Below are positions 26,681-38,691 of a DNA stretch of 64,000 nucleotides, piece after piece. A model generated the notes under the pieces. The model saw only the letters and a program-made list of their open reading frames with translations. It was not told the DNA's origin and ran no database searches. Made by a program: the position numbers and the translations under genes. The first letter of the stretch is position 1; every line of letters begins with the position of its first letter. Source of the stretch: Bacteriovoracia bacterium (lineage in GTDB: Bacteria; Bdellovibrionota; Bacteriovoracia; Bacteriovoracales; Bacteriovoracaceae); assembly GCA_046570105.1 (NCBI GenBank), contig JBKHVI010000002.1, forward strand, positions 74,737 through 138,736, in the 5' to 3' direction.

Positions 26681-28100
26681 TTTCACTCGCGGAATCCGCT
26701 TTCGACTAGCACTGGTTTATTCTGCCATTTTTGGTGTCTGCCTGATTTTGATCTCATTGGTGATCACCTATGAATATCTAGGGATTAGTCATGAAGAAAA
26801 CGATCAGGCATTACGTAGTTTTGCCATCGATCTCTCCCATTATGTCAGACCCGATTCTCTACCTAACGATTTTGATAATGTTATTGCCAGTGAAATTGCC
26901 TATTTCCCATTTCTCATTCAAAACACCATGGTCAGCGTCCGTGGTCTTAATGGAAAATTACATTTCACCAGTCGCAAAGACCTAGCAGCTCCCCACTCTC
27001 AACTCTTTGCTGATTCAAACTTACTTCATGAGTTCACTAACTTTAGGCTACCCGATGGGACTAAAATGCGCGGAATTAATCTACGCACCACTCACCTTTC
27101 AAGACCCTTAATCGTCCAGGTCGCCAGCACAATTGATGGACTGACCGCTCAACAAGATCGCCACATTTTATTTTTAATTCTTATTATTTCTTTATCCATC
27201 ATCATTACCGGTATCACTTCCACCATCGTCGCCAGAAAAGCGCTTGATCCGGTACGAGAACTCATTAAACAAGTTGAAGAACTCCTGACTCAAGAGACCT
27301 ATCGACCACTGCCTGTTCCAAGTACTCATGATGAATTGGCCCAACTGACTGTGACCTATAATTCACTTCTCACCCAAGTCAAAAAAACTCTCTCGGCACA
27401 AGACCAATTCGTCTCCCACGCTTCTCATCAACTTAATACGCCCTTAGCCATCATGCGTGGAGAATTAGAAGTTCTTCTCTCGAAAGCACGGACTCCTGAA
27501 GAAATGCGGCGCTATCATGCAAGTCTTGGGCAAGAACTCGCTCGCATGGCCCAATTAGTACGCGATATGCTGCTAGTCTCAAGAGTAGAAGCGGGCAAAG
27601 CAAGTTTTCGTTTCTCCCCACTTCGAGTTGATGAAGTGGTGACGGAAACTGTCGCTCGTCTGGGAGTTAAAGCGAAAGAGAAAAATATCGCTTTAAAACT
27701 CGATTTTGAAGCCGAGATCTTAGAAGATGAAAAGGCCCTAATGGTGGTGGGAGAGAAACAACTCTTAACCTGCCTGTTTGAAAACCTCATTGAAAACTGC
27801 ATCAAGTATTCACCTCATGATTCAGTGGTGAGGATCTACTTATCAAAAAAAGATGGTCACGCTTGTTTTCAAGTCCAAGATCAAGGCCCAGGCATTCCTG
27901 ATGAAATTCATGAAAAGCTTAAGCGCTCTGAGCGGTTCTTTCGCGGAGAACACACTGATAAAATCAGTGGCACGGGATTAGGTCTGTATTTAGTGGGGAA
28001 AATTTCGGAATATCACAGTGCTCAGTTTAAAGTAGATAATCTTGTGCCCCCTCCTGGAGCACTTTTCACAGTGATTTTTAATCAGAAACCCATCGCCTGA
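26652..28100 (+). CDS. Sensor histidine kinase (HAMP-HisKA-HATPase)
   Basis: Two TM segments, HAMP (DELAQL), H-box ASHQLNTPL, NLIENCIKY, DQGPGI and GTGLGL. Confidence 0.93.
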   Translation: MDIRSPKIPDFTRGIRFRLALVYSAIFGVCLILISLVITYEYLGISHEENDQALRSFAIDLSHYVRPDSLPNDFDNVIASEIAYFPFLIQNTMVSVRGLNGKLHFTSRKDLAAPHSQLFADSNLLHEFTNFRLPDGTKMRGINLRTTHLSRPLIVQVASTIDGLTAQQDRHILFLILIISLSIIITGITSTIVARKALDPVRELIKQVEELLTQETYRPLPVPSTHDELAQLTVTYNSLLTQVKKTLSAQDQFVSHASHQLNTPLAIMRGELEVLLSKARTPEEMRRYHASLGQELARMAQLVRDMLLVSRVEAGKASFRFSPLRVDEVVTETVARLGVKAKEKNIALKLDFEAEILEDEKALMVVGEKQLLTCLFENLIENCIKYSPHDSVVRIYLSKKDGHACFQVQDQGPGIPDEIHEKLKRSERFFRGEHTDKISGTGLGLYLVGKISEYHSAQFKVDNLVPPPGALFTVIFNQKPIA

Positions 28101-28780
28101 CGAGCGGCCTTGCGCTCAGAACGATTGTAGGCCGGCAGTGCCCAATGCCAAGTAGCAAGATTCCATTCGCTAGGAACCACTGAGGGAGCAGTGTAATTCA
28201 TGCCACCCCCACTGACCTCACGAAATCCAATCTCAAGAGGCTGATAGAAAAAACGAGGTGCGGCGGTGTAATAACACTGGTTACGCACGCGATCGACGTG
28301 GCGATAGCCCTCACTTGCGTTACGCTCTTCCACATATTCCATCGGGTCATTGATTTCCATGCAAACTTCCGGCTCTTTCATGAGTGAGCCTGCCCACTCT
28401 TGCAGTGGCATGGCACGATCTGTAAAAGTTGGATCCATCACCCACAGTTCTCCATTTACACGAACGGCCGGAGCGGTATGGAACCACCAGGTAAAGGCGC
28501 GGCCCCAACGTGTGGTTACTCGATGTTTCATTTGGAACTTATAAGTGAAATAGAGAAAGACCTTCTCCATCGTCACTTTGTGGACTTTTTCGGCCCGCAA
28601 GGCCCACATGTGAGCACGTTCGAAACACTCCGAGTACTCATCCATTTTGGCGTTTTCTATCTTTAGATCTTTAAAAATGACTTGGGCGGTCTCAGGGGTT
28701 ATCTCCTGTGAGCTCAAGGGATAAAGTTGGGCCCAGGCCGGTAAGGCCATAAACAAAAAAAGATAAGTCAGATGACGCAC
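28082..28780 (-). CDS. Secreted protein-glutamine glutaminase family protein (likely GTG start at 28780)
   Basis: Cys-His-Asp motifs CFERAH, WWFHTAP and VMDP; signal peptide MRHLTYLFLFMALPAWA with SD AAGGAG. Confidence 0.75.
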   Translation of the reverse strand: MRHLTYLFLFMALPAWAQLYPLSSQEITPETAQVIFKDLKIENAKMDEYSECFERAHMWALRAEKVHKVTMEKVFLYFTYKFQMKHRVTTRWGRAFTWWFHTAPAVRVNGELWVMDPTFTDRAMPLQEWAGSLMKEPEVCMEINDPMEYVEERNASEGYRHVDRVRNQCYYTAAPRFFYQPLEIGFREVSGGGMNYTAPSVVPSEWNLATWHWALPAYNRSERKAARQAMGF

Positions 28781-28946
28781 AGAAAACTCCTTGAAGGGGA
28801 TGTGCGAAATTAGCATAAACAAGGAGAATTTTGCGATGCGTGAGAAGTTTTTACATGTGTCGAGAAATTCGACGGCCCTGTAAGACCTTGTAAGAAAAAC
28901 TTTGACTAACCCCTAGAAAATACAATAGTGTCCGGCCTCATAAAAC

Positions 28947-28962
28947 AGGCAAGCCGTTTGCT
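28947..28962 (+). promoter_or_regulatory. Candidate sigma54 (-24/-12) promoter of the ATP-grasp operon
   Basis: AGGCAAGCCGTTTGCT, with exact GG-N10-GC spacing and TTGCT at -12. Confidence 0.55.
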
Positions 28963-29095
28963 ACTAAAGCCTCACTTACTTCAGGTTTGAAGGCCCTTTG
29001 GCGTGCAAAAAGTTCACGGTTTAGGGGTGTTTTGCGCACAGTGTCACTTTTAAGAGTTTAATAAGGTCAAACGGATATATACAGCGAGGTTTAAC

Positions 29096-32000
29096 GTGTC
29101 TAAAGCAAAGAATCAGCGCCAGGGTGTGAGCTACGATCCTAACTTAGGCTTTATCGGCCAAGTTAAAGTGGACGTGTCTAACTACCTTTTCAGTTCGCGC
29201 CGTCGACGTTCTGCTTATAATCACACCAAGCCTTTGGTGAAGTCACTTTTAGGCCGTGACATTAATGAGCATCATTCTGAATCTCAGAAGCTCACTAAGT
29301 TTATTCGTAAGCGTGACCTGACTTTCCAAAAGAGTACCAAAGACGGCTCATACAAGATCTTCACTGTTCCTTGTACGACGACGGTTGTTCCTTTGCAGAA
29401 GAGCATGTTCAATCAAATCGAGCGTTCAGCTCAAGCGTTGATTGTTTCTCTTCGCGCTGTGATCCAAGATATCTACGGTTCTAAATCAGTTAAAGATTCT
29501 GCTTTTGTAAAATCACTTCCCAAAGAAGTGCGCCAAATCTTTATTGAAGCAGTAGAAACATCTCCAAACTACTTCACGCAATTACATCACCCGAATATGA
29601 AGAAGTACCCCTTCTTCGATAACGTCGGATTGGACCTAGTTCTCGTGGAAGATTATCTTCAAGAAGCTGAGAACTTCGATAAACTCTTGCGTGCAGGTGC
29701 AGTCTCTGAACTTCCATTACCTTTCCGCATCCTTGAATTAAATGCAGGCTCACCTTCTGGTGCTTCTAACAATATGAACGTGCTCGAAGGTCTCTACGAG
29801 CAGTCACCTGAGACTTTGAACAGTCTTGGTAAATTAATGCCAAATGATCATTTCAAAGTGTTGGCGGAAACTTATAAAACTTTGGGTGAAGACTGGACTG
29901 GTATTAAAGACGGTGTACAAGTTATTCTTCCTCCCGGCGGCCTTAATGGTGCTGCTCCGGAAATTCACAACCTCGCGGCCTATTCTGGAATGGTTTACGC
30001 TGATCCAGTCCAGTTGTTCTGCGATGAGAAGGGTTTCATTCGCCTTCGCACGATCAATGGTTCAAACCCCATCGTAACCGCGATCTACTCACGCATTAAC
30101 GCAGACTCTGCTTTATTTGATCCAGCAAAAGACTTGATCTTGCGTGATGCAGATTCTGGCGAGCCGATTTATCTTCGCGACTCATTAAAGCTGGGTGCTG
30201 ACGGTAAAGCTCCGTTGGTTCTTGATGTGGATGGCAACCCTATCCCACTCCAATCTGACTACGCGATTCCTAATCTTTTGGAAGCCATTCTTAACCGTCG
30301 CATTTATATGGGTGGATTGAATCGCATTCTTGATAACAAAATTATTCTCGCGGCCCTTACAACTTACGCACCTATGTTCTTTGAGAAGCGTTTGCGTGAA
30401 TTGAATCTGGCACCTGCTGATGCCCGCATCACTCCACCAGAGACTCTTCCCTCATGTGCGGAATCAGTTGATATCATCGCTAAGAACCCAGACGAATGGG
30501 TTATCAAAGCACCTAACCTCTCAGGCGGTACTGGTGTTTATATCTTGAAGACACTCTCAAAAGAGCGTCGTGAAGAAGTTCTTGAGATGGCCCAGAAAGA
30601 TCCGAAGCATTTTGCTTACCAGCGTTTGGTAAAAATCGCTCGTATCCCAGTTACAACTAATAGCAAAGAAGGCACACGCTTTGCGAACCTCGCTGCTGAT
30701 ATCCGCTTGTGGATCTTCTTTGGCGGCGGCGCTAAAGCTCTGCCAAAAATGACTCACAATGCATTGGTTCGCTACGCTCCTCAAGAGCGCGGACCGATGA
30801 GCTCAATCGTTAACACATCAAAAGGCGGCGGTTACGCTCCGTTTGTGGTGGTAGATGATATCAACTCTCCAGACTCTGTGACAGCAGCTGAAATGGTACG
30901 TCCGAAGTATCCAGCTCCGTTGATGACTCACCTTCCAATGTTCGTCGCAGCTCAATTGATCCAAGTTTCTCGCTTGGGTCTTGAGATTCGCCGTCAGCTT
31001 CTCACTGATCGCGCAGATTCGTACGAGCTTTTGGGAATTACTCTTTCATTGAAACTTCAGTGCCGCGAGATCATGAGTTTCCTCAATCCTCGCGCCATCG
31101 AGCCGGTTTATAAATTGATTGATACGCTTGAAGCAAAACAAGCTAAAAAAGAAATTGCCGCCTACTTCCAGTTGGTTCATGGCAACCACATTAAGATGGT
31201 TTCTGTGCTTCAACGCTTGGAATCTAAGGGTAAACTTCCAAAGGGCTTCCGCGACAATCTTGATCAGTTGAATATCCTAAACGAAGACATTCTCTCTCAG
31301 TGCTACGCTGAAGAGCATCGTAAGTCAGACAAGAAAGGCCTTAAAGTCTTGCGTGAGATGATGCTCGCAGTGAAAGGCGATAAGAAAACCATCTCTGACG
31401 CAAAGACTGTTATGTCTCTTCTTGCATCAAGCGTAAATGCACGCTTCCCGCATGAAATCTTGAGCGGAAAAACTGCTCAGAATATGGTGAAGATGATTGA
31501 AACTTTCATGCAGATGGTGCGTGAGCGTTTACAAAACTCAGAAAAAGCGATCGAGTTCGCTAAGATCTTTAATACCGATATGGTTCACCCTGACTTGGCC
31601 TTTGAAACATTTGGTCTTGCCGATAACAAAGATGGCCGTCTTTTGACCGCTTCTCAGCGTGAATTTGCTACCGGTGAACTTCTGACTGAATCTGAGTTTG
31701 TTTCAGCTGAACTCAAGTCAATCCGCGCTCAGTGGTTGCCGGTCATGGCAGAAGCTAAAAAAATTCGTAACAGCGCAGAGAGAGAAGCTTTCTTAACCAA
31801 GAAGCGTGCCGCTCACTTTAAGAAATTCCCTATCCTTGCTCGCTACCAAGAGCTCATGGGCAACACTTCTGCAGAATTGAAAGACTTGATTGAGCTCATG
31901 CCGATCATGCCTTACGCGCACTACAACCTTTCGATGCTCGCTAAAAAACAAGGCGTCACCATCGAAGAGATTTTCTCTGATAAACTTACCCCTAACAAGA

Positions 32001-32836
32001 TCTCTATCTTGTCGAGTAAGCAGATCCGCGAGAATCATCTCTCTGCTCAAGACCATGCTGGTGAGTGTTTTGCTAAAAAACGTAAATCACACGGCCTCTT
32101 CTCTGACTCAGATATCTTTATCTGGGTTCGTAAAGAACTTGATCCGATGACTCAGCTCTATACGGCGGGCCATGAAGTGATTCACTATCACCAGATCGAA
32201 GAAACCACGCGTATGGAAGCCAATGCGCTTTCAAACGGTGCGATTGCTCAAGCTTACTTCTTGAACTTCTACGGTAACTTCTTAGGCATCTCAAATGCCT
32301 CGCTAGAAGGTCTCTCGCTGGATATCGCAGTTGAGCGCCAACCACTCTATGGTTTGGCCGACCGAATGATCCCTCACTTCTTCTCTAAAGTTGTGACGGA
32401 AGTTCGCTTGGCAATCAATAGCTCTCGCGAGACTTACGACAAGATGCTCGACAAATACGGCTCATTGTTTGGCTATATGATGCCAAACTCTTCTCAGGTT
32501 CGTGTGAAAGCCCTCCAAGAGATTTTACCAGCACTTGAAAACGCCAAAAACATTCGCTTCGCTAAAGAGTTGGGTTTGAATGTTTCTTGGGATGAAGTCC
32601 GCTCAGCGGTACCTTCGGCTAACAATGCCCAGGTCAAAGCACTGACGCCAAAGATTGAGCGCGCCATTGCCACGGCTGCGGTTGATTACGAAGCCCTAAT
32701 CGCTATCGGTAACCACCAGTTCTACGGTGTATCTTTCGGCTACAAGATCCCAGCGAAAGAAACATTGCGCCTGCGCCCAATCTTGGGAGTAGTGAGCTTA
32801 GGTAACAGTTATAACCAAACGCAACAACAGCAATAA
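29096..32836 (+). CDS. Circularly permuted type 2 ATP-grasp ligase fused to a helical region and a C-terminal HEXXH zincin domain; ends in QTQQQQ
   Basis: DIYG, GLDLV, ILELNAGSPSGAS, ILPPGGLN, IYSRIN, LDNK, VIKAPNLSGGTG, ADIR and VNTSKGGG match CP-ATP-grasp motifs; TAGHEVIHY at 32171-32185. Confidence 0.85.
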   Translation: MSKAKNQRQGVSYDPNLGFIGQVKVDVSNYLFSSRRRRSAYNHTKPLVKSLLGRDINEHHSESQKLTKFIRKRDLTFQKSTKDGSYKIFTVPCTTTVVPLQKSMFNQIERSAQALIVSLRAVIQDIYGSKSVKDSAFVKSLPKEVRQIFIEAVETSPNYFTQLHHPNMKKYPFFDNVGLDLVLVEDYLQEAENFDKLLRAGAVSELPLPFRILELNAGSPSGASNNMNVLEGLYEQSPETLNSLGKLMPNDHFKVLAETYKTLGEDWTGIKDGVQVILPPGGLNGAAPEIHNLAAYSGMVYADPVQLFCDEKGFIRLRTINGSNPIVTAIYSRINADSALFDPAKDLILRDADSGEPIYLRDSLKLGADGKAPLVLDVDGNPIPLQSDYAIPNLLEAILNRRIYMGGLNRILDNKIILAALTTYAPMFFEKRLRELNLAPADARITPPETLPSCAESVDIIAKNPDEWVIKAPNLSGGTGVYILKTLSKERREEVLEMAQKDPKHFAYQRLVKIARIPVTTNSKEGTRFANLAADIRLWIFFGGGAKALPKMTHNALVRYAPQERGPMSSIVNTSKGGGYAPFVVVDDINSPDSVTAAEMVRPKYPAPLMTHLPMFVAAQLIQVSRLGLEIRRQLLTDRADSYELLGITLSLKLQCREIMSFLNPRAIEPVYKLIDTLEAKQAKKEIAAYFQLVHGNHIKMVSVLQRLESKGKLPKGFRDNLDQLNILNEDILSQCYAEEHRKSDKKGLKVLREMMLAVKGDKKTISDAKTVMSLLASSVNARFPHEILSGKTAQNMVKMIETFMQMVRERLQNSEKAIEFAKIFNTDMVHPDLAFETFGLADNKDGRLLTASQREFATGELLTESEFVSAELKSIRAQWLPVMAEAKKIRNSAEREAFLTKKRAAHFKKFPILARYQELMGNTSAELKDLIELMPIMPYAHYNLSMLAKKQGVTIEEIFSDKLTPNKISILSSKQIRENHLSAQDHAGECFAKKRKSHGLFSDSDIFIWVRKELDPMTQLYTAGHEVIHYHQIEETTRMEANALSNGAIAQAYFLNFYGNFLGISNASLEGLSLDIAVERQPLYGLADRMIPHFFSKVVTEVRLAINSSRETYDKMLDKYGSLFGYMMPNSSQVRVKALQEILPALENAKNIRFAKELGLNVSWDEVRSAVPSANNAQVKALTPKIERAIATAAVDYEALIAIGNHQFYGVSFGYKIPAKETLRLRPILGVVSLGNSYNQTQQQQ

Positions 32837-32845
32837 GGTCACCTT

Positions 32846-35074
32846 ATGGATATGACTACGACAACAACGATGGCCCCGCCAGTCTCAGAAGGACTGAAGT
32901 TTTTGTTGGGACAATCACATCAAAATCTTTTCGCACTTCTCGAAGAAGTGGTGATTAATGGTGGTGTAAAGTCACTTGGAATTAAAGAAAAAGTACGCGC
33001 AATTCGCCGTGAAGGTGATGCTTCAGGTTTTCGCTATATTGCCGAAGACTGGTTCCAAGGTCATTTGCTCTTAAGCTTTTCTTCTGCTGGAGGATTTGTT
33101 CTTAACACCGCTCTCGCCCAAGACGGCATGGTGACTGAGAAATGGGATATCTATAATGTGAATGGTGAACTCGAAGCCACTCACTACATCGCTCCTGCAA
33201 CCGTTGGTGCTGGCGAAGCCATGGAAATGGATCTCGCATGCCCACTACTAGATCTGCTATATAACTTCCTTGCCTCTGAATATGGCAAGGCCGGTACTGC
33301 TGAAGTTCAATCACATATGGTTCATACCATTGAGCGTTTTTTGCGCCTTCGCTACAAAGCAATGGGCTCTGAGCGTCGTCGTGATCCATTAATCCGTCAC
33401 GTCTTCCACAAAATGCTCATCATCGAAGCTGATCCTGTTCTCAATTGGGATGAACGCCAACTGGTTTATGAAGGTTTGATGGGTGGATTGAAGCGTGTCC
33501 TGCAAGTGAAGCGTCGTGCTCATGGCCGTGGAATGATTTCTCAATCAATCGAAATGCTGCGCTTTAAATGGGCCTCATTTGCTCGCCGCTTTAAGGCCCG
33601 TCCTTGGAATAACTTTCAAGGGATGTTCTATCGCTACACTATCGCTAAGATTATTTGGTTCTGCTCAACGGTAAAAGGCAACCTCGGTTACTCTGTTGCC
33701 CTGGCCGTTTATGGCCCATTTACCTATTACTTCATCACCATGCCGATGAACCCACATGCCATGCAAGCGGTGGGCACAGTGCGCTCTACTTACCTTGATA
33801 TCAAGAGTGGCATCACACACGTAAAAGACATCTTTAACGGCATTCCCCATTCGATTAACGATGTTGAAGTTAAAATCCCTGAGGCCCCTACTGCGATCGT
33901 GAGTGCACCCCAGGCGACTGCTGCTGGAAGTGAACCTGTCACTCCTCCATCGGTAAACCCAAACTTTATTAGCATCTCGCATGTCACTTTAGATGCAAAT
34001 GTGAAATTCCCAGTCGTACTAGACGGTAAAACGACCAGCGTGGCGCCGACCTATTTAAATCTACTTCTTTCTCCCGATGTTCCAAGCATCGATAAGATAG
34101 AATGGTCTGAACGCATGGGGAACTTCAAGCAAATGCAAATTGCTTACGAAGAGTCGATGGAATATGCCCCACGTATGGGTCGCTTAGAGCAACTTGAAAC
34201 TCAGTACAACTTCCCTATGGTAGTAGAGAGTGCCTGGGAAGAGATGGAGCGCTATAATAACCGTATTTTCAAGATACGTTCAAAAGAACAGAATCTTTCT
34301 CCCAAGATGAAGCAGTTCCTGACTAATGAAGTGAACCGCACCCAACAACTCGAGCTTTATCTTTGGGATCGCTTAGCACGCTTTATCCTTGATCAGCCCT
34401 ATGTCATGTTGGATGAAGCCCAAGAACAAAAACGCAGTGACTATTATGTCGGCCGTGCCTTTGTATTCATGGAAGAGATGACGCAAGTGTTGGGTTGGCG
34501 CTATCCAGACTTCAAAAAACCGCATGGCTATGAAAAAATCGTCAAAGCGGCTTCTAAGTATAAGTCTGAGCGCAAAGAGCAAGGAAATATCCTCGCCAAC
34601 CTTAAAGCGAACTCGGATCTTTTCCGTCAGAAAGATGCATACTCGACTACCGAGTTTCGTTCATACATGAAGCGACAGTGGGAAATTCTCTTCTTGCAAA
34701 ATGCTAAAGCGGAAGAAGCCAGTAATAATGGTTTGAACATGTACATCTGGAGTGTGCGTAACACGGTATGGTGCTTGCAATCACTTTACTCAGCTAAACG
34801 CCAAGAGCTTGAGCTCTTGATTGAACAAGACCTCACGGGTTCGTTGGATGGATTATCCCAGACTGAACTTGCCAAGACCGAGCTTCTACAAGAAACTTTA
34901 TTCCATAACCTCACTATGGAGTGGATTGGAGTGAAAGAAGAAATGGGCTCACGCTTAGCTAAGGATATTGAAACAGTTCAGCGTCGTGTGGTGATAGATA
35001 ACTTGAAAGAGTCACTTCATGATCGCGCGAAAATTCTCAATCAATTTAATCCACAGGCACAGGCGAGTCGATGA
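32846..35074 (+). CDS. Large membrane-anchored hypothetical protein
   Basis: Basic stretch, then a hydrophobic segment (YSVALAVYGPFTYYFITM), a Pro/Thr/Ala linker and a long helical C-terminal domain; 9 bp after the ligase gene. Confidence 0.75.
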   Translation: MDMTTTTTMAPPVSEGLKFLLGQSHQNLFALLEEVVINGGVKSLGIKEKVRAIRREGDASGFRYIAEDWFQGHLLLSFSSAGGFVLNTALAQDGMVTEKWDIYNVNGELEATHYIAPATVGAGEAMEMDLACPLLDLLYNFLASEYGKAGTAEVQSHMVHTIERFLRLRYKAMGSERRRDPLIRHVFHKMLIIEADPVLNWDERQLVYEGLMGGLKRVLQVKRRAHGRGMISQSIEMLRFKWASFARRFKARPWNNFQGMFYRYTIAKIIWFCSTVKGNLGYSVALAVYGPFTYYFITMPMNPHAMQAVGTVRSTYLDIKSGITHVKDIFNGIPHSINDVEVKIPEAPTAIVSAPQATAAGSEPVTPPSVNPNFISISHVTLDANVKFPVVLDGKTTSVAPTYLNLLLSPDVPSIDKIEWSERMGNFKQMQIAYEESMEYAPRMGRLEQLETQYNFPMVVESAWEEMERYNNRIFKIRSKEQNLSPKMKQFLTNEVNRTQQLELYLWDRLARFILDQPYVMLDEAQEQKRSDYYVGRAFVFMEEMTQVLGWRYPDFKKPHGYEKIVKAASKYKSERKEQGNILANLKANSDLFRQKDAYSTTEFRSYMKRQWEILFLQNAKAEEASNNGLNMYIWSVRNTVWCLQSLYSAKRQELELLIEQDLTGSLDGLSQTELAKTELLQETLFHNLTMEWIGVKEEMGSRLAKDIETVQRRVVIDNLKESLHDRAKILNQFNPQAQASR

Positions 35075-35955
35075 AAAGCCTTTTTCTTGCTGCCGCACTA
35101 TTTATTGGTGCGGCTTCAGCTCATGCCCAAAATAGAAGCCAAACCCGCTTTGAAGATAAAAGCTTTTGGAAAAAACTCGCTCGCGAAATTTCGCTTGGAT
35201 ATTATTTCTCACTAATGGGTCCATCTCCGGCGCTACCTGCGGATCAAACTTATAACGTTTTTTTAGAAGACAAGAGTCCCCAGCAGACCTTCCACTCATT
35301 AAATTTGCGATGGCAGTTTGCTGCTCAGTGGGCAATGGGGATTACTCTCTCAGGCGTTCATCATCACACTTCCCCAGTTAAAACTGAGCAAGGTTTTATC
35401 AACGATAACAATCGAACTATGTTCGACTCACGAGTTTATTTAGCGGTGCCCAGTGTTGATCTTGGCTTCGCTTATATGTTTAATAATTTTGCTCTCGAAG
35501 TACCAACCACTCCTATTTCTCGTGATAATGAGATGCGTTTTGGGATGGTTCTCTCACAAACTATTTCATTGAAAGATATGCCAAAGAAATTCTCGGCCGG
35601 ATGGCTCACTCAGCTCATCCGTTACGAATATAAACGCTCGACACTCCCACCGCCATTTGTCGGTGGTCTCTCGACTCCCCTGCAAACAACATTACTTACT
35701 ACCGGCCCTTATTTGAATTATCAATTGGCCGAACAATGGCAGATCGCTAGTATTCTTTCTTTTGACTGGGATCAACGTGGTAACCAAACTGATACTTTAG
35801 AATTTAACAATAATCTTCCAGATCGCTTCCGTTTGGCCTTGAACTATTTCTTTAGAACCAAGCCATTCACTCATGTCGGTGTCTACGTTCAAACCAACAC
35901 GAAACCACGTGACGATAATACCATCGTCGGTCTCGACTTCTCTCTGCTATTCTAA
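35071..35955 (+). CDS. Putative outer-membrane beta-barrel protein
   Basis: Signal peptide ending AHA, amphipathic strands and C-terminal VGLDFSLLF; ATGA-coupled to the upstream gene. Confidence 0.65.
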   Translation: MKSLFLAAALFIGAASAHAQNRSQTRFEDKSFWKKLAREISLGYYFSLMGPSPALPADQTYNVFLEDKSPQQTFHSLNLRWQFAAQWAMGITLSGVHHHTSPVKTEQGFINDNNRTMFDSRVYLAVPSVDLGFAYMFNNFALEVPTTPISRDNEMRFGMVLSQTISLKDMPKKFSAGWLTQLIRYEYKRSTLPPPFVGGLSTPLQTTLLTTGPYLNYQLAEQWQIASILSFDWDQRGNQTDTLEFNNNLPDRFRLALNYFFRTKPFTHVGVYVQTNTKPRDDNTIVGLDFSLLF

Positions 35956-35962
35956 TCTAAGC

Positions 35963-35990
35963 AAAAAAAAAGGGGCCTAAAAGGCCCCTT
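35963..35990. terminator. Terminator between convergent genes
   Basis: AAGGGGCCT-aaa-AGGCCCCTT with an A tract. Confidence 0.8.
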
Positions 35991-36014: not shown

Positions 36015-36884
36015 TTATGGATTGTAGTCGCGGTAATTTCTAAATGCTTCTTCGCGAGCTTCGCGAACTTCATTTAAATTCCAGTTCAATTCTTGACGGC
36101 CTTGAGTCTCAAGAAGTTCAAGATCGGCCGGTGAGCGGTAGTACATGCTGGCCTTGATCAAGTAACAATCTTGTGTCCATTGATTTTGACGGTACTGAGA
36201 GTATCTCTCAACAGTAGGACAGGCCGCGCTGTTTTTCATAAACATATCTGTCCAAGGGCGCATTTGAGTTGGGCCACGAGAATAAGAAACATCCATTACG
36301 TGTTCAACTGGACCGCTACTCGTTTGCACAACTACAAATGGAGCAACATGGAACCACCACTTATAACGGTAAGCCTTGATGTAGCGCTGAGTGAAGAAAA
36401 TGAAAACTTTCATTGAATTCACACCAGACATTCTCCACATATCATATGACCATCCATGAGCGCGGTTGAAACACTGTGACCAGCGCTTAGTATTTCCGTC
36501 TTGGCGATTAAACAAACTCTGAGCATCACTGAGAGAATTCATTACTGTTGGAGTATAGAATGATTTTTCATCACTCTTAGCTTCAAAGCTCACTTCATCG
36601 GTGGCAACTTCTAAAAGTTCTGCTCCAAAGATTTTGCCACTTTCATTATCAAAGCGAAGGGCCACATTGAGGCCTTCTTTTTGAGCTTCTTTCAAAGCAT
36701 TCAACATGACTTCGTCTTTAGCGTCGGCCCACAACACACGGCCTTCGTTTTCGGCAAAAACCATAACTTCTTTGTCACTTATTTCAGGGGTAGCGACATT
36801 AACGAGCCGTGTTTTGAGCTCGGCAGCTGAGACCAGCTGAGAGGCGAATAATAGGGCCATAGGGGCCAGCAGCAGCTTTTTCAT
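36015..36884 (-). CDS. Secreted protein-glutamine glutaminase family protein with N-terminal extra domain
   Basis: Signal peptide; motifs CFNRAH, WWFHVAP and VMD; paralog of 28082-28780. Confidence 0.78.
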   Translation of the reverse strand: MKKLLLAPMALLFASQLVSAAELKTRLVNVATPEISDKEVMVFAENEGRVLWADAKDEVMLNALKEAQKEGLNVALRFDNESGKIFGAELLEVATDEVSFEAKSDEKSFYTPTVMNSLSDAQSLFNRQDGNTKRWSQCFNRAHGWSYDMWRMSGVNSMKVFIFFTQRYIKAYRYKWWFHVAPFVVVQTSSGPVEHVMDVSYSRGPTQMRPWTDMFMKNSAACPTVERYSQYRQNQWTQDCYLIKASMYYRSPADLELLETQGRQELNWNLNEVREAREEAFRNYRDYNP

Positions 36885-37098: not shown

Positions 37099-38691
37099 AT
37101 GAAGCGTCCGTTGAAGAGTCTAGTGGTGATTTCGTGCCTCGCAAGTAGCGTGGCGATGGCAGATCCACTTAAAGAAATTTTCCCTTGGAAACCTTTCGCC
37201 CTTGAAGAGATTAATTCGCGCGTGAGTCGTTTGACTGAAGAAGCGCAACCGATGATGAACGTCTATGAAATGGATCGCGCCGGACTAAAAGATCGTAATA
37301 CAAAAATTCAGCCATGGGGTGGTTACTATTGGGCGCTTAACCGCGGCCAAATCGCTAACACTTGGCAAGACAAAAACTATATTCAATTTTGGGAAATGAT
37401 CGGCTGGGAAAACAACGTTAAAACTTGGAAGAAACGCCGCTCAGAAAAACTACCTTCAGTCATGGATATGAGCGAGAAAGATCTCTCAGAGCTTGCTCCT
37501 TCGGAAAAGTATGATCTTCTTCTTGGTGATACTAGCTTTGATCTCACGAACCGTGTTTGGCAATTTGCTGAATCATGGGGCAATAGTAAAAAATGGGGTT
37601 TCTTAAGTTCAATCGAAATTCCTGAAGGCTACCGTATTCCTAAGGCCAACCGTTTGATGGCGTTGTGGGAAGGTATCTGTCACGGATGGGCCGTAGCAGC
37701 TGGTGTTTATCCACGTCCAGAAAAAACAGTGACAGTAAAACTTCCGAACGGCAAAAGCTTACCGTTTTATCCAGATGATATTAAGGCGCTTGTTTCGTTG
37801 ATGTATGCCAACTCAATTTTGCAAGACAACGTTTTGATCGAAGGCTACCGCTGTGATGACAAGAATCCACCACAAGATGAATTTGGTCGTTTCATTGATG
37901 AGATGCCGAAGAAAGAAGGCGAAGCCGTACTCCCACGTTGTGCTGACGTTCACCCAGCGATTTGGCATGCTGCTTTGATTAACATAACAGGTATTCAAGG
38001 TCGCTCATTGATCACTGAGATCGATGCCAACGCTACCGTTAACAATCACCCACTTTCTGGTTATGAGTTTGAGTGGTTCAATCCAAAATCAGGTCGTAAG
38101 ACGAGTGATCTTAACAAGGCCGTTATCAATCTGGCGGACTACCGTGACCCATATAAGAGTTCACGTAGCCCACACGCTGTAAAGCTTGTTGGCGTCGAAA
38201 TGAAAATGCGTTTCTTGAAATGGTCTAATCCAAAAGATGAGCACACAAACGGCCCTGAGAATGACAAAATTGATGATCAAAAAATGATGTATGACTTGGA
38301 GCTTGATGCTCAAGGAAATATCGTCGGAGGTCAGTGGCGTGCAACTTCAACCGCCTCACGCTATAACAGTAATGATAATACGAACCCACCTTCTGTTAAA
38401 CAGCCGGACTTCTTCTGGGTTGTTCCAAAGAACAACAGCATGTATGTGAAGAACTTAACACTTGAACCTTGGGATGGCCGTGGTCAAGTTCCTGCTAGCT
38501 GGACACAAGCATCACGTGGAGCCCATGGGTTTATTTACAACATGACTCGTGAATTTGGCTTTAATGAGAAGTGTACAGTTATCCCAGAAAACGATGGCAA
38601 ACCAAAAGAAGTTCCGTGTGAGTTTAAATACCCACGCCCACAACCTTTGGTGAATGTTGTGAATCAGTTAGTTGAGATGTCACGTGAGTAA
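37099..38691 (+). CDS. Secreted transglutaminase-elicitor (GP42-like) family protein
   Basis: Signal peptide, PWGGYYW, APSEKYD, WEGICHGWA (catalytic Cys-His), DDIKAL, NHP and YDLELD..GNIVGGQW..PDFFW. Confidence 0.78.
   Translation: MKRPLKSLVVISCLASSVAMADPLKEIFPWKPFALEEINSRVSRLTEEAQPMMNVYEMDRAGLKDRNTKIQPWGGYYWALNRGQIANTWQDKNYIQFWEMIGWENNVKTWKKRRSEKLPSVMDMSEKDLSELAPSEKYDLLLGDTSFDLTNRVWQFAESWGNSKKWGFLSSIEIPEGYRIPKANRLMALWEGICHGWAVAAGVYPRPEKTVTVKLPNGKSLPFYPDDIKALVSLMYANSILQDNVLIEGYRCDDKNPPQDEFGRFIDEMPKKEGEAVLPRCADVHPAIWHAALINITGIQGRSLITEIDANATVNNHPLSGYEFEWFNPKSGRKTSDLNKAVINLADYRDPYKSSRSPHAVKLVGVEMKMRFLKWSNPKDEHTNGPENDKIDDQKMMYDLELDAQGNIVGGQWRATSTASRYNSNDNTNPPSVKQPDFFWVVPKNNSMYVKNLTLEPWDGRGQVPASWTQASRGAHGFIYNMTREFGFNEKCTVIPENDGKPKEVPCEFKYPRPQPLVNVVNQLVEMSRE

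Follow-up and report, generated by a model that had tools for sequence, protein, structure and literature searches.

Ligases with a circularly permuted ATP-grasp (CP-ATP-grasp) fold are reportedly encoded in operons together with alpha-E, transglutaminase and Anbu genes, an arrangement credited to Iyer et al. in 2009, and DUF2126-type ligases are also part of these canonical operons. In the cap/pgs systems for poly-gamma-glutamate, a cytoplasmic ligase, a single-pass membrane protein and enzymes outside the cell act on a glutamate polymer, CapB being a Mur-type ligase and CapC a polytopic protein. The available parts of two reports on the widespread CP-ATP-grasp operons (PMC6376114, PMC5666114) describe ATP turnover by the ligase, present tagging or peptide synthesis as a hypothetical role, and give neither product nor role as established. 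Here, we analyse three genes, g1, g2 and g3 (together, the trio), at 28947..35990 of a 64,000-nt stretch of a Bacteriovoracia genome (the window, to which all coordinates without a locus label refer; Table 1). Together with its partner families, the trio offers the same set of enzymes as the cytoplasmic ATP-grasp/alpha-E/transglutaminase operons, except that alpha-E is missing and that the set is predicted to be divided over the envelope. The system is real, well conserved and apparently undescribed; our literature search found no published description of the cluster, within a coverage of few subscription papers and with the reservation that Iyer 2009 may list the architecture. A bioRxiv report (10.64898/2026.04.15.718621) considered as a precedent deals, in its accessible part, with a different ATP-grasp enzyme. 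An initial annotation of the window had already singled out the trio as a candidate undescribed system, which proves larger than it had seen.

The trio resembles the canonical operons by the family and fold of its ligase, by Gln-rich tails, and by linkage to transglutaminase-fold enzymes and a peptidase. Among four canonical loci that we fetched, three are annotated with ligase, alpha-E and transglutaminase, two have a peptidase gene nearby, and Gln-rich tails occur in three. The trio differs in that the predicted peptidase is fused to the ligase, in that a predicted inner-membrane protein and a predicted barrel are core genes, and in its Cys enzymes, which belong to PF18626 (protein glutaminase) and PF16683 (TGase_elicitor) and have signal-like starts, whereas the canonical operon has a cytoplasmic transglutaminase. 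As alpha-E was not found (no PF04168 match in the own genome, 3.0 Mb, 88% complete, with 2862 open reading frames (ORFs), nor in g1-g3), we do not consider the trio a member of the canonical operon family, despite the same chemistries. An alpha-E identity of g2 or of the helical region of g1 was rejected, with HHalign values of 0.6% and 0.1% against a thin 4-sequence profile. The idea of the cap/pgs systems is the same, but g1-g3 have no Pfam match to those families. Finally, the accessible part of another report (PMC10318531) ties PF18626 to Dot/Icm neighbourhoods and not to an ATP-grasp ligase; the PF18626 and PF16683 genes of the window score above cut-off, and a subfamily of PF18626 is confined to trio genomes within our sample.

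All co-occurrence counts come from one sample of 401 Bdellovibrionota genomes, in which g2 is present in 43 and g1 has matches in 58. The long form of g1 is found in 44, namely all 43 genomes with g2 and one 2.7-kb contig, the other 14 matches being partial (at most 196 bits); apart from that contig, no full-length g1 without g2 was found among the 401. g1 adjoins g2 in 43/43 genomes, in the same direction in 28 and divergently in 15 (family f15), and g3 lies downstream of g2 in 41/43, the two exceptions being a contig end and a genome without g3 (G033). In a set of 60 metagenome loci, g1 is upstream of g2 in all 39 loci with room for it (5 divergent) and g3 is downstream in 48 of 49. The cluster is kept across four families with differing flanks and through the inversion of g1. 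Pairwise distances of g1, g2 and g3 correlate (Spearman 0.78-0.82 over 44 loci, two g1 rows coming from duplicate loci), and their trees have 15-20 supported splits in common for 3-5 conflicting ones, which shows co-inheritance, not co-evolution. Co-occurrence in other genomes, on which the initial annotation had staked its proposal, thus holds, as do its three reading frames with gaps of 9 bp and -4 bp, and the latter overlap recurs across most homologous loci; a single three-gene operon, as it proposed, is not the conserved feature, given the 15 divergent g1 genes and the genome with g1-g2 only. The trio, found among relatives of predatory bacteria, is a gene package that splits genera of Bdellovibrionota. 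The records closest to it bear the title Bacteriovoracaceae, and further ones Peredibacter, Halobacteriovoraceae, Oligoflexia or Bdellovibrionales; it is also present in a named Peredibacter isolate genome (L029). One has to keep in mind that these genomes are kin, and that the trio and partner counts are not independent.

Table 1. Features of the trio and its surroundings in the window (aa, amino acids; rmsd, root-mean-square deviation).
Feature	Position	Strand	Description
g1	29096..32836	+	1246 aa; CP-ATP-grasp ligase, then helical bundle, HEXXH domain and poly-Gln tail
ATP-grasp domain of g1 (about residues 47-587)	29234..30856	+	3n6x Z 29.8, rmsd 2.9, 418 aligned
HEXXH motif (H1026 E1027 H1030), predicted zincin domain of g1	32171..32185	+	invariant in 78/78
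C-terminal YNQTQQQQ tail of g1	32810..32833	+	conserved poly-Gln end
g2	32846..35074	+	742 aa; predicted to cross the inner membrane once, with the N-terminus inside and a helical C-domain in the periplasm
Predicted membrane helix of g2 (residues 280-298), conserved and uncharged	33683..33739	+	hydropathy, alignment
g3	35071..35955	+	294 aa; predicted outer-membrane beta-barrel
Sigma-54-like (-24/-12) promoter candidate	28947..28962	+	10/12 consensus positions
Hairpin, terminator-like	35970..35990	-	U-tract on minus strand, z -3.43
Protein-glutaminase-family gene, trio-linked subfamily	28082..28822	-	PF18626 E 2.4e-13; divergent from g1; signal-like start
Second protein-glutaminase-family gene	36015..36884	-	PF18626 E 5.7e-12; convergent on g3
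TGase_elicitor-family gene	37099..38691	+	PF16683 E 4.3e-26; signal-like start

Some loci are variants of this layout. Part of family f15 (L108, L133, L134) has a shortened divergent trio, with a g1 of 1183 aa, a g2 of about 612 aa and a g3 of 257 aa. In G033, a 339-aa ORF with a signal-like start and a terminal Phe, without Pfam match, is divergent from g1 (L114:13216-14235). In metagenome locus L209, a second g1-like ligase of 772 aa without obvious signal peptide (L209:11343-13661) is convergent behind g1-g2 at the place of the missing g3, with a TGase_elicitor-like gene near.

g1 reads as an intact CP-ATP-grasp ligase fused to a predicted protease domain. It reaches 66.1 bits against PF14403 (CP_ATPgrasp_2), above the curated cut-off of 32, and its model, built for residues 47-1246 from 78 sequences, has a predicted local distance difference test (pLDDT) of 87.9 and a predicted template modelling score (pTM) of 0.87. 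The first 540 residues of the model match 3n6x best, then glutathione and glutathionylspermidine synthetases, and show the circularly permuted ATP-grasp fold with its ExN, Lys and D-x-R residues, whose roles we take to be those usual in this fold; E214, N216, K471, D535 and R537 are invariant in 78/78 homologs. The ATP-grasp part is followed in the model by a four-helix bundle, three strands and a helix bearing HEXXH, and this placement of the motif on a helix after a beta-sheet, seen in both model and alignment, is that of a zincin. E1142 and E1148, also invariant in 78/78, are candidates for the third zinc ligand. The motif, the secondary structure and weak matches to DUF6782 (19 of 24 C-domain fragments, best E 0.00036, below cut-off) lead us to predict a zincin; a profile of this domain gave nothing credible against PDB sequences. 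We rejected stand-alone forms of the domain, as the 67 shorter matches, nearly all on short contigs, are consistent with fragments. In a genome without g2, a 251-aa stand-alone ORF (L122:6678-7433) resembles residues 848-1036 of g1 without HEXXH, and two TGase_elicitor-like genes are nearby.

All 78 g1 homologs end in 2-11 Gln, and 77 match the tail motif; in the own genome, 13/2862 ORFs end in QQ or in a Gln-rich decamer, and g1 is the only one with four terminal Gln. The last residues are modelled as a strand. Neither a signal peptide nor a membrane helix was seen in g1 by sequence inspection and hydropathy. Glutathionylspermidine/trypanothione synthetase-amidases (2io9, 2vob) and glutathione synthetases share the ligase fold of g1 (Z 15-22, 8-15% identity), and the synthetase-amidases, like g1, hold a ligase and a hydrolase in one chain. 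Glutathionylspermidine amidase is a Cys amidase, whereas the hydrolase of g1 is a predicted zincin, and g1 has membrane partners.

g2 is a predicted membrane protein of 742 aa without fold match. A search of 1.84 billion representatives found 71 relatives, Pfam and NCBIfam gave no match, a profile search of PDB sequences gave nothing credible, and the Atlas had no usable match for the C-domain. Its model (pLDDT 88.8, pTM 0.57) found no Foldseek match at E<=0.001, the best VIA result being Z 9.3 with generic bundles; the N-domain was barely probed in this search, and a new fold is therefore not demonstrated. The anatomy that the initial annotation described is borne out: an N-terminal soluble domain, a basic stretch (218-278), a helix (280-298), a disordered Pro/Thr linker (332-364) and a helical C-domain. 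The helix is marginally hydrophobic (Kyte-Doolittle 1.05-1.57), uncharged in 51/51 rows and the most conserved segment (0.88). Because the mean net charge over 51 homologs is +10 in the stretch before it and about 0 past it, we predict an N-in single-pass inner-membrane protein.

g3 looks like an outer-membrane beta-barrel, with the terminal Phe and the signal-peptide-like start that had been noticed before (all such starts were judged by eye and hydropathy). Its Pfam matches are weak and mostly to barrel families. The nearest named cluster in the Atlas, which we treat as a lead, is that of PF13557 (Phenol_MetA_deg), at 0.96 with 165 features; PF13557 is matched by 3/51 g3 homologs (best E 0.00037, below cut-off), and the window protein has no match above cut-off, the best homolog reaching 21 bits for a cut-off of 22. 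A g3 profile gave nothing credible against PDB sequences, its PPR matches being repeat artefacts. As 74/401 genomes hold some g3-type match, the barrel family is wider than the trio. Close g3 paralogs lie away from the trio in two trio genomes (L143:7205-8374, L123:4888-5895), and weak g3-like barrels occur in many non-trio genomes.

The initial annotation had the trio but overlooked the poly-Gln tail and the glutaminase, TGase_elicitor, zincin and DUF2126 partners, although the first two families flank the trio in the window. We clustered 719 ORFs from 55 loci, which we sorted into 13 lineage groups with labels of our own: after the trio itself come glutaminases (8 groups), response-regulator-like genes (7), TGase_elicitor genes (6) and a signal-peptide HEXXH family (4). 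The response-regulator-like genes are excluded as a part because their family is ubiquitous, and the upstream response regulator/kinase was likewise rejected, although syntenic in close relatives. In 32 of the 54 loci flanked by 3 kb or more on either side, a count that includes duplicates and kin, a partner gene lies within 6 kb of the trio. Of the 5 glutaminase and 4 TGase_elicitor genes in the own genome, 2 and 1 flank the trio. Copies were counted in two sets, 44 genomes with the trio and 36 hand-picked ones without it: PF18626 has 188 vs 26 copies (present in 43/44 vs 18/36 genomes), and PF16683 has 358 vs 82 (mean 8.1 vs 2.3; 44/44 vs 23/36). The excess is also seen within family f1 (copies/genomes: PF18626 129/20 vs 16/18; PF16683 168/20 vs 31/18) and within f14 (24/7 vs 6/13 and 61/7 vs 43/13).

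The distribution is sharper for subfamilies, scored in a subset of these 80 genomes (27 trio, 30 non-trio, 57 in all). A profile of trio-adjacent glutaminases (E<=1e-25) is matched in 27/27 trio vs 0/30 non-trio genomes, at least 8 of the 27 having contributed seeds, and the signal-peptide HEXXH (zincin) family (E<=1e-10) in 20/27 vs 0/30, with at least 2 seeds. The catalytic Cys-His-Asp is kept in the glutaminases of trio loci, including the one at 28082..28822, and several trio-linked glutaminases are short (210-250 aa). PF09899 (DUF2126) is matched in 24/401 genomes, and the best 14 are all trio genomes; among these 14 are 7/7 trio genomes of f14, against none of the other 50. With a dedicated profile (8 seeds), a full-length DUF2126 amidoligase is found in 14/44 trio vs 0/36 non-trio genomes, and in none of genus g33 or family f15. 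The DUF2126 gene touches the trio in five loci (L111, L112, L191, L218, L221), TGase, DUF2126 and glutaminase genes being directly upstream of the trio in L191; in 7/14 loci of f15, the g2-g3 unit begins with a glutaminase gene. A stand-alone DUF2126-type amidoligase, full-length only in trio genomes, lies on contig C1 of the own genome (L152:784-2070), directly after a presumably aminotransferase-like gene.

From these data, we tentatively propose, with rather less than even confidence, that the trio is the core of a pathway making, exporting and finishing a Gln/Glu-rich peptide outside the cell. The observed basis consists of the clustering, the intact ligase and HEXXH residues, the Gln tail, and the partner families with their distribution. 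In the cytoplasm, g1 would assemble a Gln/Glu-rich peptide and trim it, and its Gln tail may prime the synthesis or act as an in-built substrate. The most parsimonious view is that the enzymes linked to the trio act on one Gln/Glu-containing product, and the glutamine-modifying partner families with signal-like starts make a glutamine-rich peptide finished outside likely. Such a product must cross the envelope, since g1 needs ATP and has no signal peptide, and the Cys enzymes and the peptidase have signal-like starts. We assign the carrier role to g2 and g3 because they are the only conserved envelope genes; they would carry the peptide across both membranes, their contact, their localisation and the direction of flow being supposed. 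The likely secreted enzymes may then deamidate, cross-link and cut the peptide outside, where the product could be caught, and an optional DUF2126 ligase may add a second amide-forming step. A span from cytoplasm through inner to outer membrane, as initially annotated, fits the anatomy, and localisation, like the ligase and protease activities and the nature of the product, is predicted from sequence. The bolder version is an undescribed class of Gram-negative export pathway: the peptide of a self-priming ligase-protease would pass through g2, as an inner-membrane protein with a new fold, and then through a small barrel, and a dedicated set of transglutaminases, deamidases and zincins outside the cell would cross-link it to form a surface coat or attach it to proteins of the prey. 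In our opinion, this is less likely than not, yet has a fair chance.

Several points weigh against export. The main weakness is that no polytopic transporter recurs near the trio in the neighbourhood clustering of 55 loci; for its single marginal helix to pass a peptide, g2 would have to oligomerise. Whole-protein fold searches were filled by other domains and did not confirm the predicted zincin fold in the C-domain of g1. Moreover, any partner gene is lacking within 6 kb in 22/54 well-flanked loci, both Cys enzyme families occur in non-trio genomes (18/36 and 23/36), G033 and L209 have g1-g2 without adjacent g3, and the many copies of the secreted enzymes are more easily explained by foreign substrates than by a single polymer of the cell's own. 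The same single-copy core with many secreted enzymes would suit a flow in the opposite direction, which we find unlikely, though it comes second in our estimate: proteins of prey or environment would be broken down by the secreted peptidases and deamidases, the Glu/Gln peptides would be let in or bound by g3, and single-pass g2 would set g1 to ligate or to hydrolyse, for signalling or nitrogen salvage. A single, highly conserved helix that joins two soluble domains is better suited to signalling than to transport, glutathionylspermidine synthetase/amidase, a structural neighbour of g1, also combines opposing activities in one chain, and the leads for g3 are small-molecule channel families (PF13557 and FadL-type), but these matches are below cut-off. 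The sigma-54-like site of close relatives also speaks for this reading, as does, in the accessible parts of the reports, the induction of Anbu under nitrogen limitation (PMC6376114, PMC5666114), yet the site is not kept beyond close relatives, and family and fold searches matched neither a sigma factor nor a TonB receptor nor any known sensor domain.

The genes may also be merely co-inherited as a lifestyle package, co-selected and clustered, with g1 alone in the cytoplasm and no envelope-spanning complex. Separate transcription of g1 in 15/43 genomes and the lack of g3 beside g2 in two loci speak for this, as do the kinship that inflates our counts and the hand-picking of the non-trio sets; we consider it unlikely, as g1 stays beside g2 through inversion and in 43/43 genomes despite changed flanks, and full-length g1 without g2 was seen solely on one 2.7-kb contig. 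It is more improbable still that g2-g3 escort or secrete the glutaminase, TGase and peptidase enzymes themselves, or shield the cell against their action, while g1 adds a tag or a repair step. The strict tie of the multi-copy glutaminase subfamily to the trio, the glutaminase-g2-g3 units of f15 and the short glutaminases would be explained, but the ligase is left without clear role, and the three enzyme families have no common C-terminal signal (0 cross-matches; N-terminal cross-matches overlap the signal peptides), so that a shared cargo signal was rejected. The trio also points to a large subfamily of putative protein glutaminases; protein glutaminase is an enzyme class in industrial use.

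As for expression, one candidate promoter had been reported. A sigma-54-like site does stand where the annotated interval starts, scored with a consensus that we take to be the standard one, whereas sigma-70-like sites are no commoner than expected by chance (16, against 17.8 in shuffles) and a sigma-70 promoter was rejected. Five of 75 upstream regions have the sigma-54-like site in the same place, where shuffles gave a mean of 0.53 and a maximum of 3. All five belong to close relatives; three further close relatives and every distant locus lack the site, and sigma-54 control was rejected as a trait of the family. The closing hairpin is real, but its U-tract is on the minus strand and not on that of the trio, which makes it look like a terminator for the glutaminase gene that converges on g3; it could be a bidirectional terminator.

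Six long CP-ATP-grasp ligases (L116:47-3490, L117:1355-4741, L118:4915-8013, L119:5985-8420, L120:6042-9161, L121:5843-8350) come from six Bdellovibrionota genomes without g2. They have 811-1147 aa, signal-like starts and no Gln tail, with HEXXH in four. Their starts suggest that the chemistry is wanted outside the cytoplasm, a point in favour of export; if secreted, they would need a compartment holding ATP, such as prey, and they are candidate effectors. At L120, several neighbouring signal-peptide proteins have a Cys-x-x-Leu-Leu-like motif near one end, as do some of the secreted ligases, and this is possibly a shared sorting motif.

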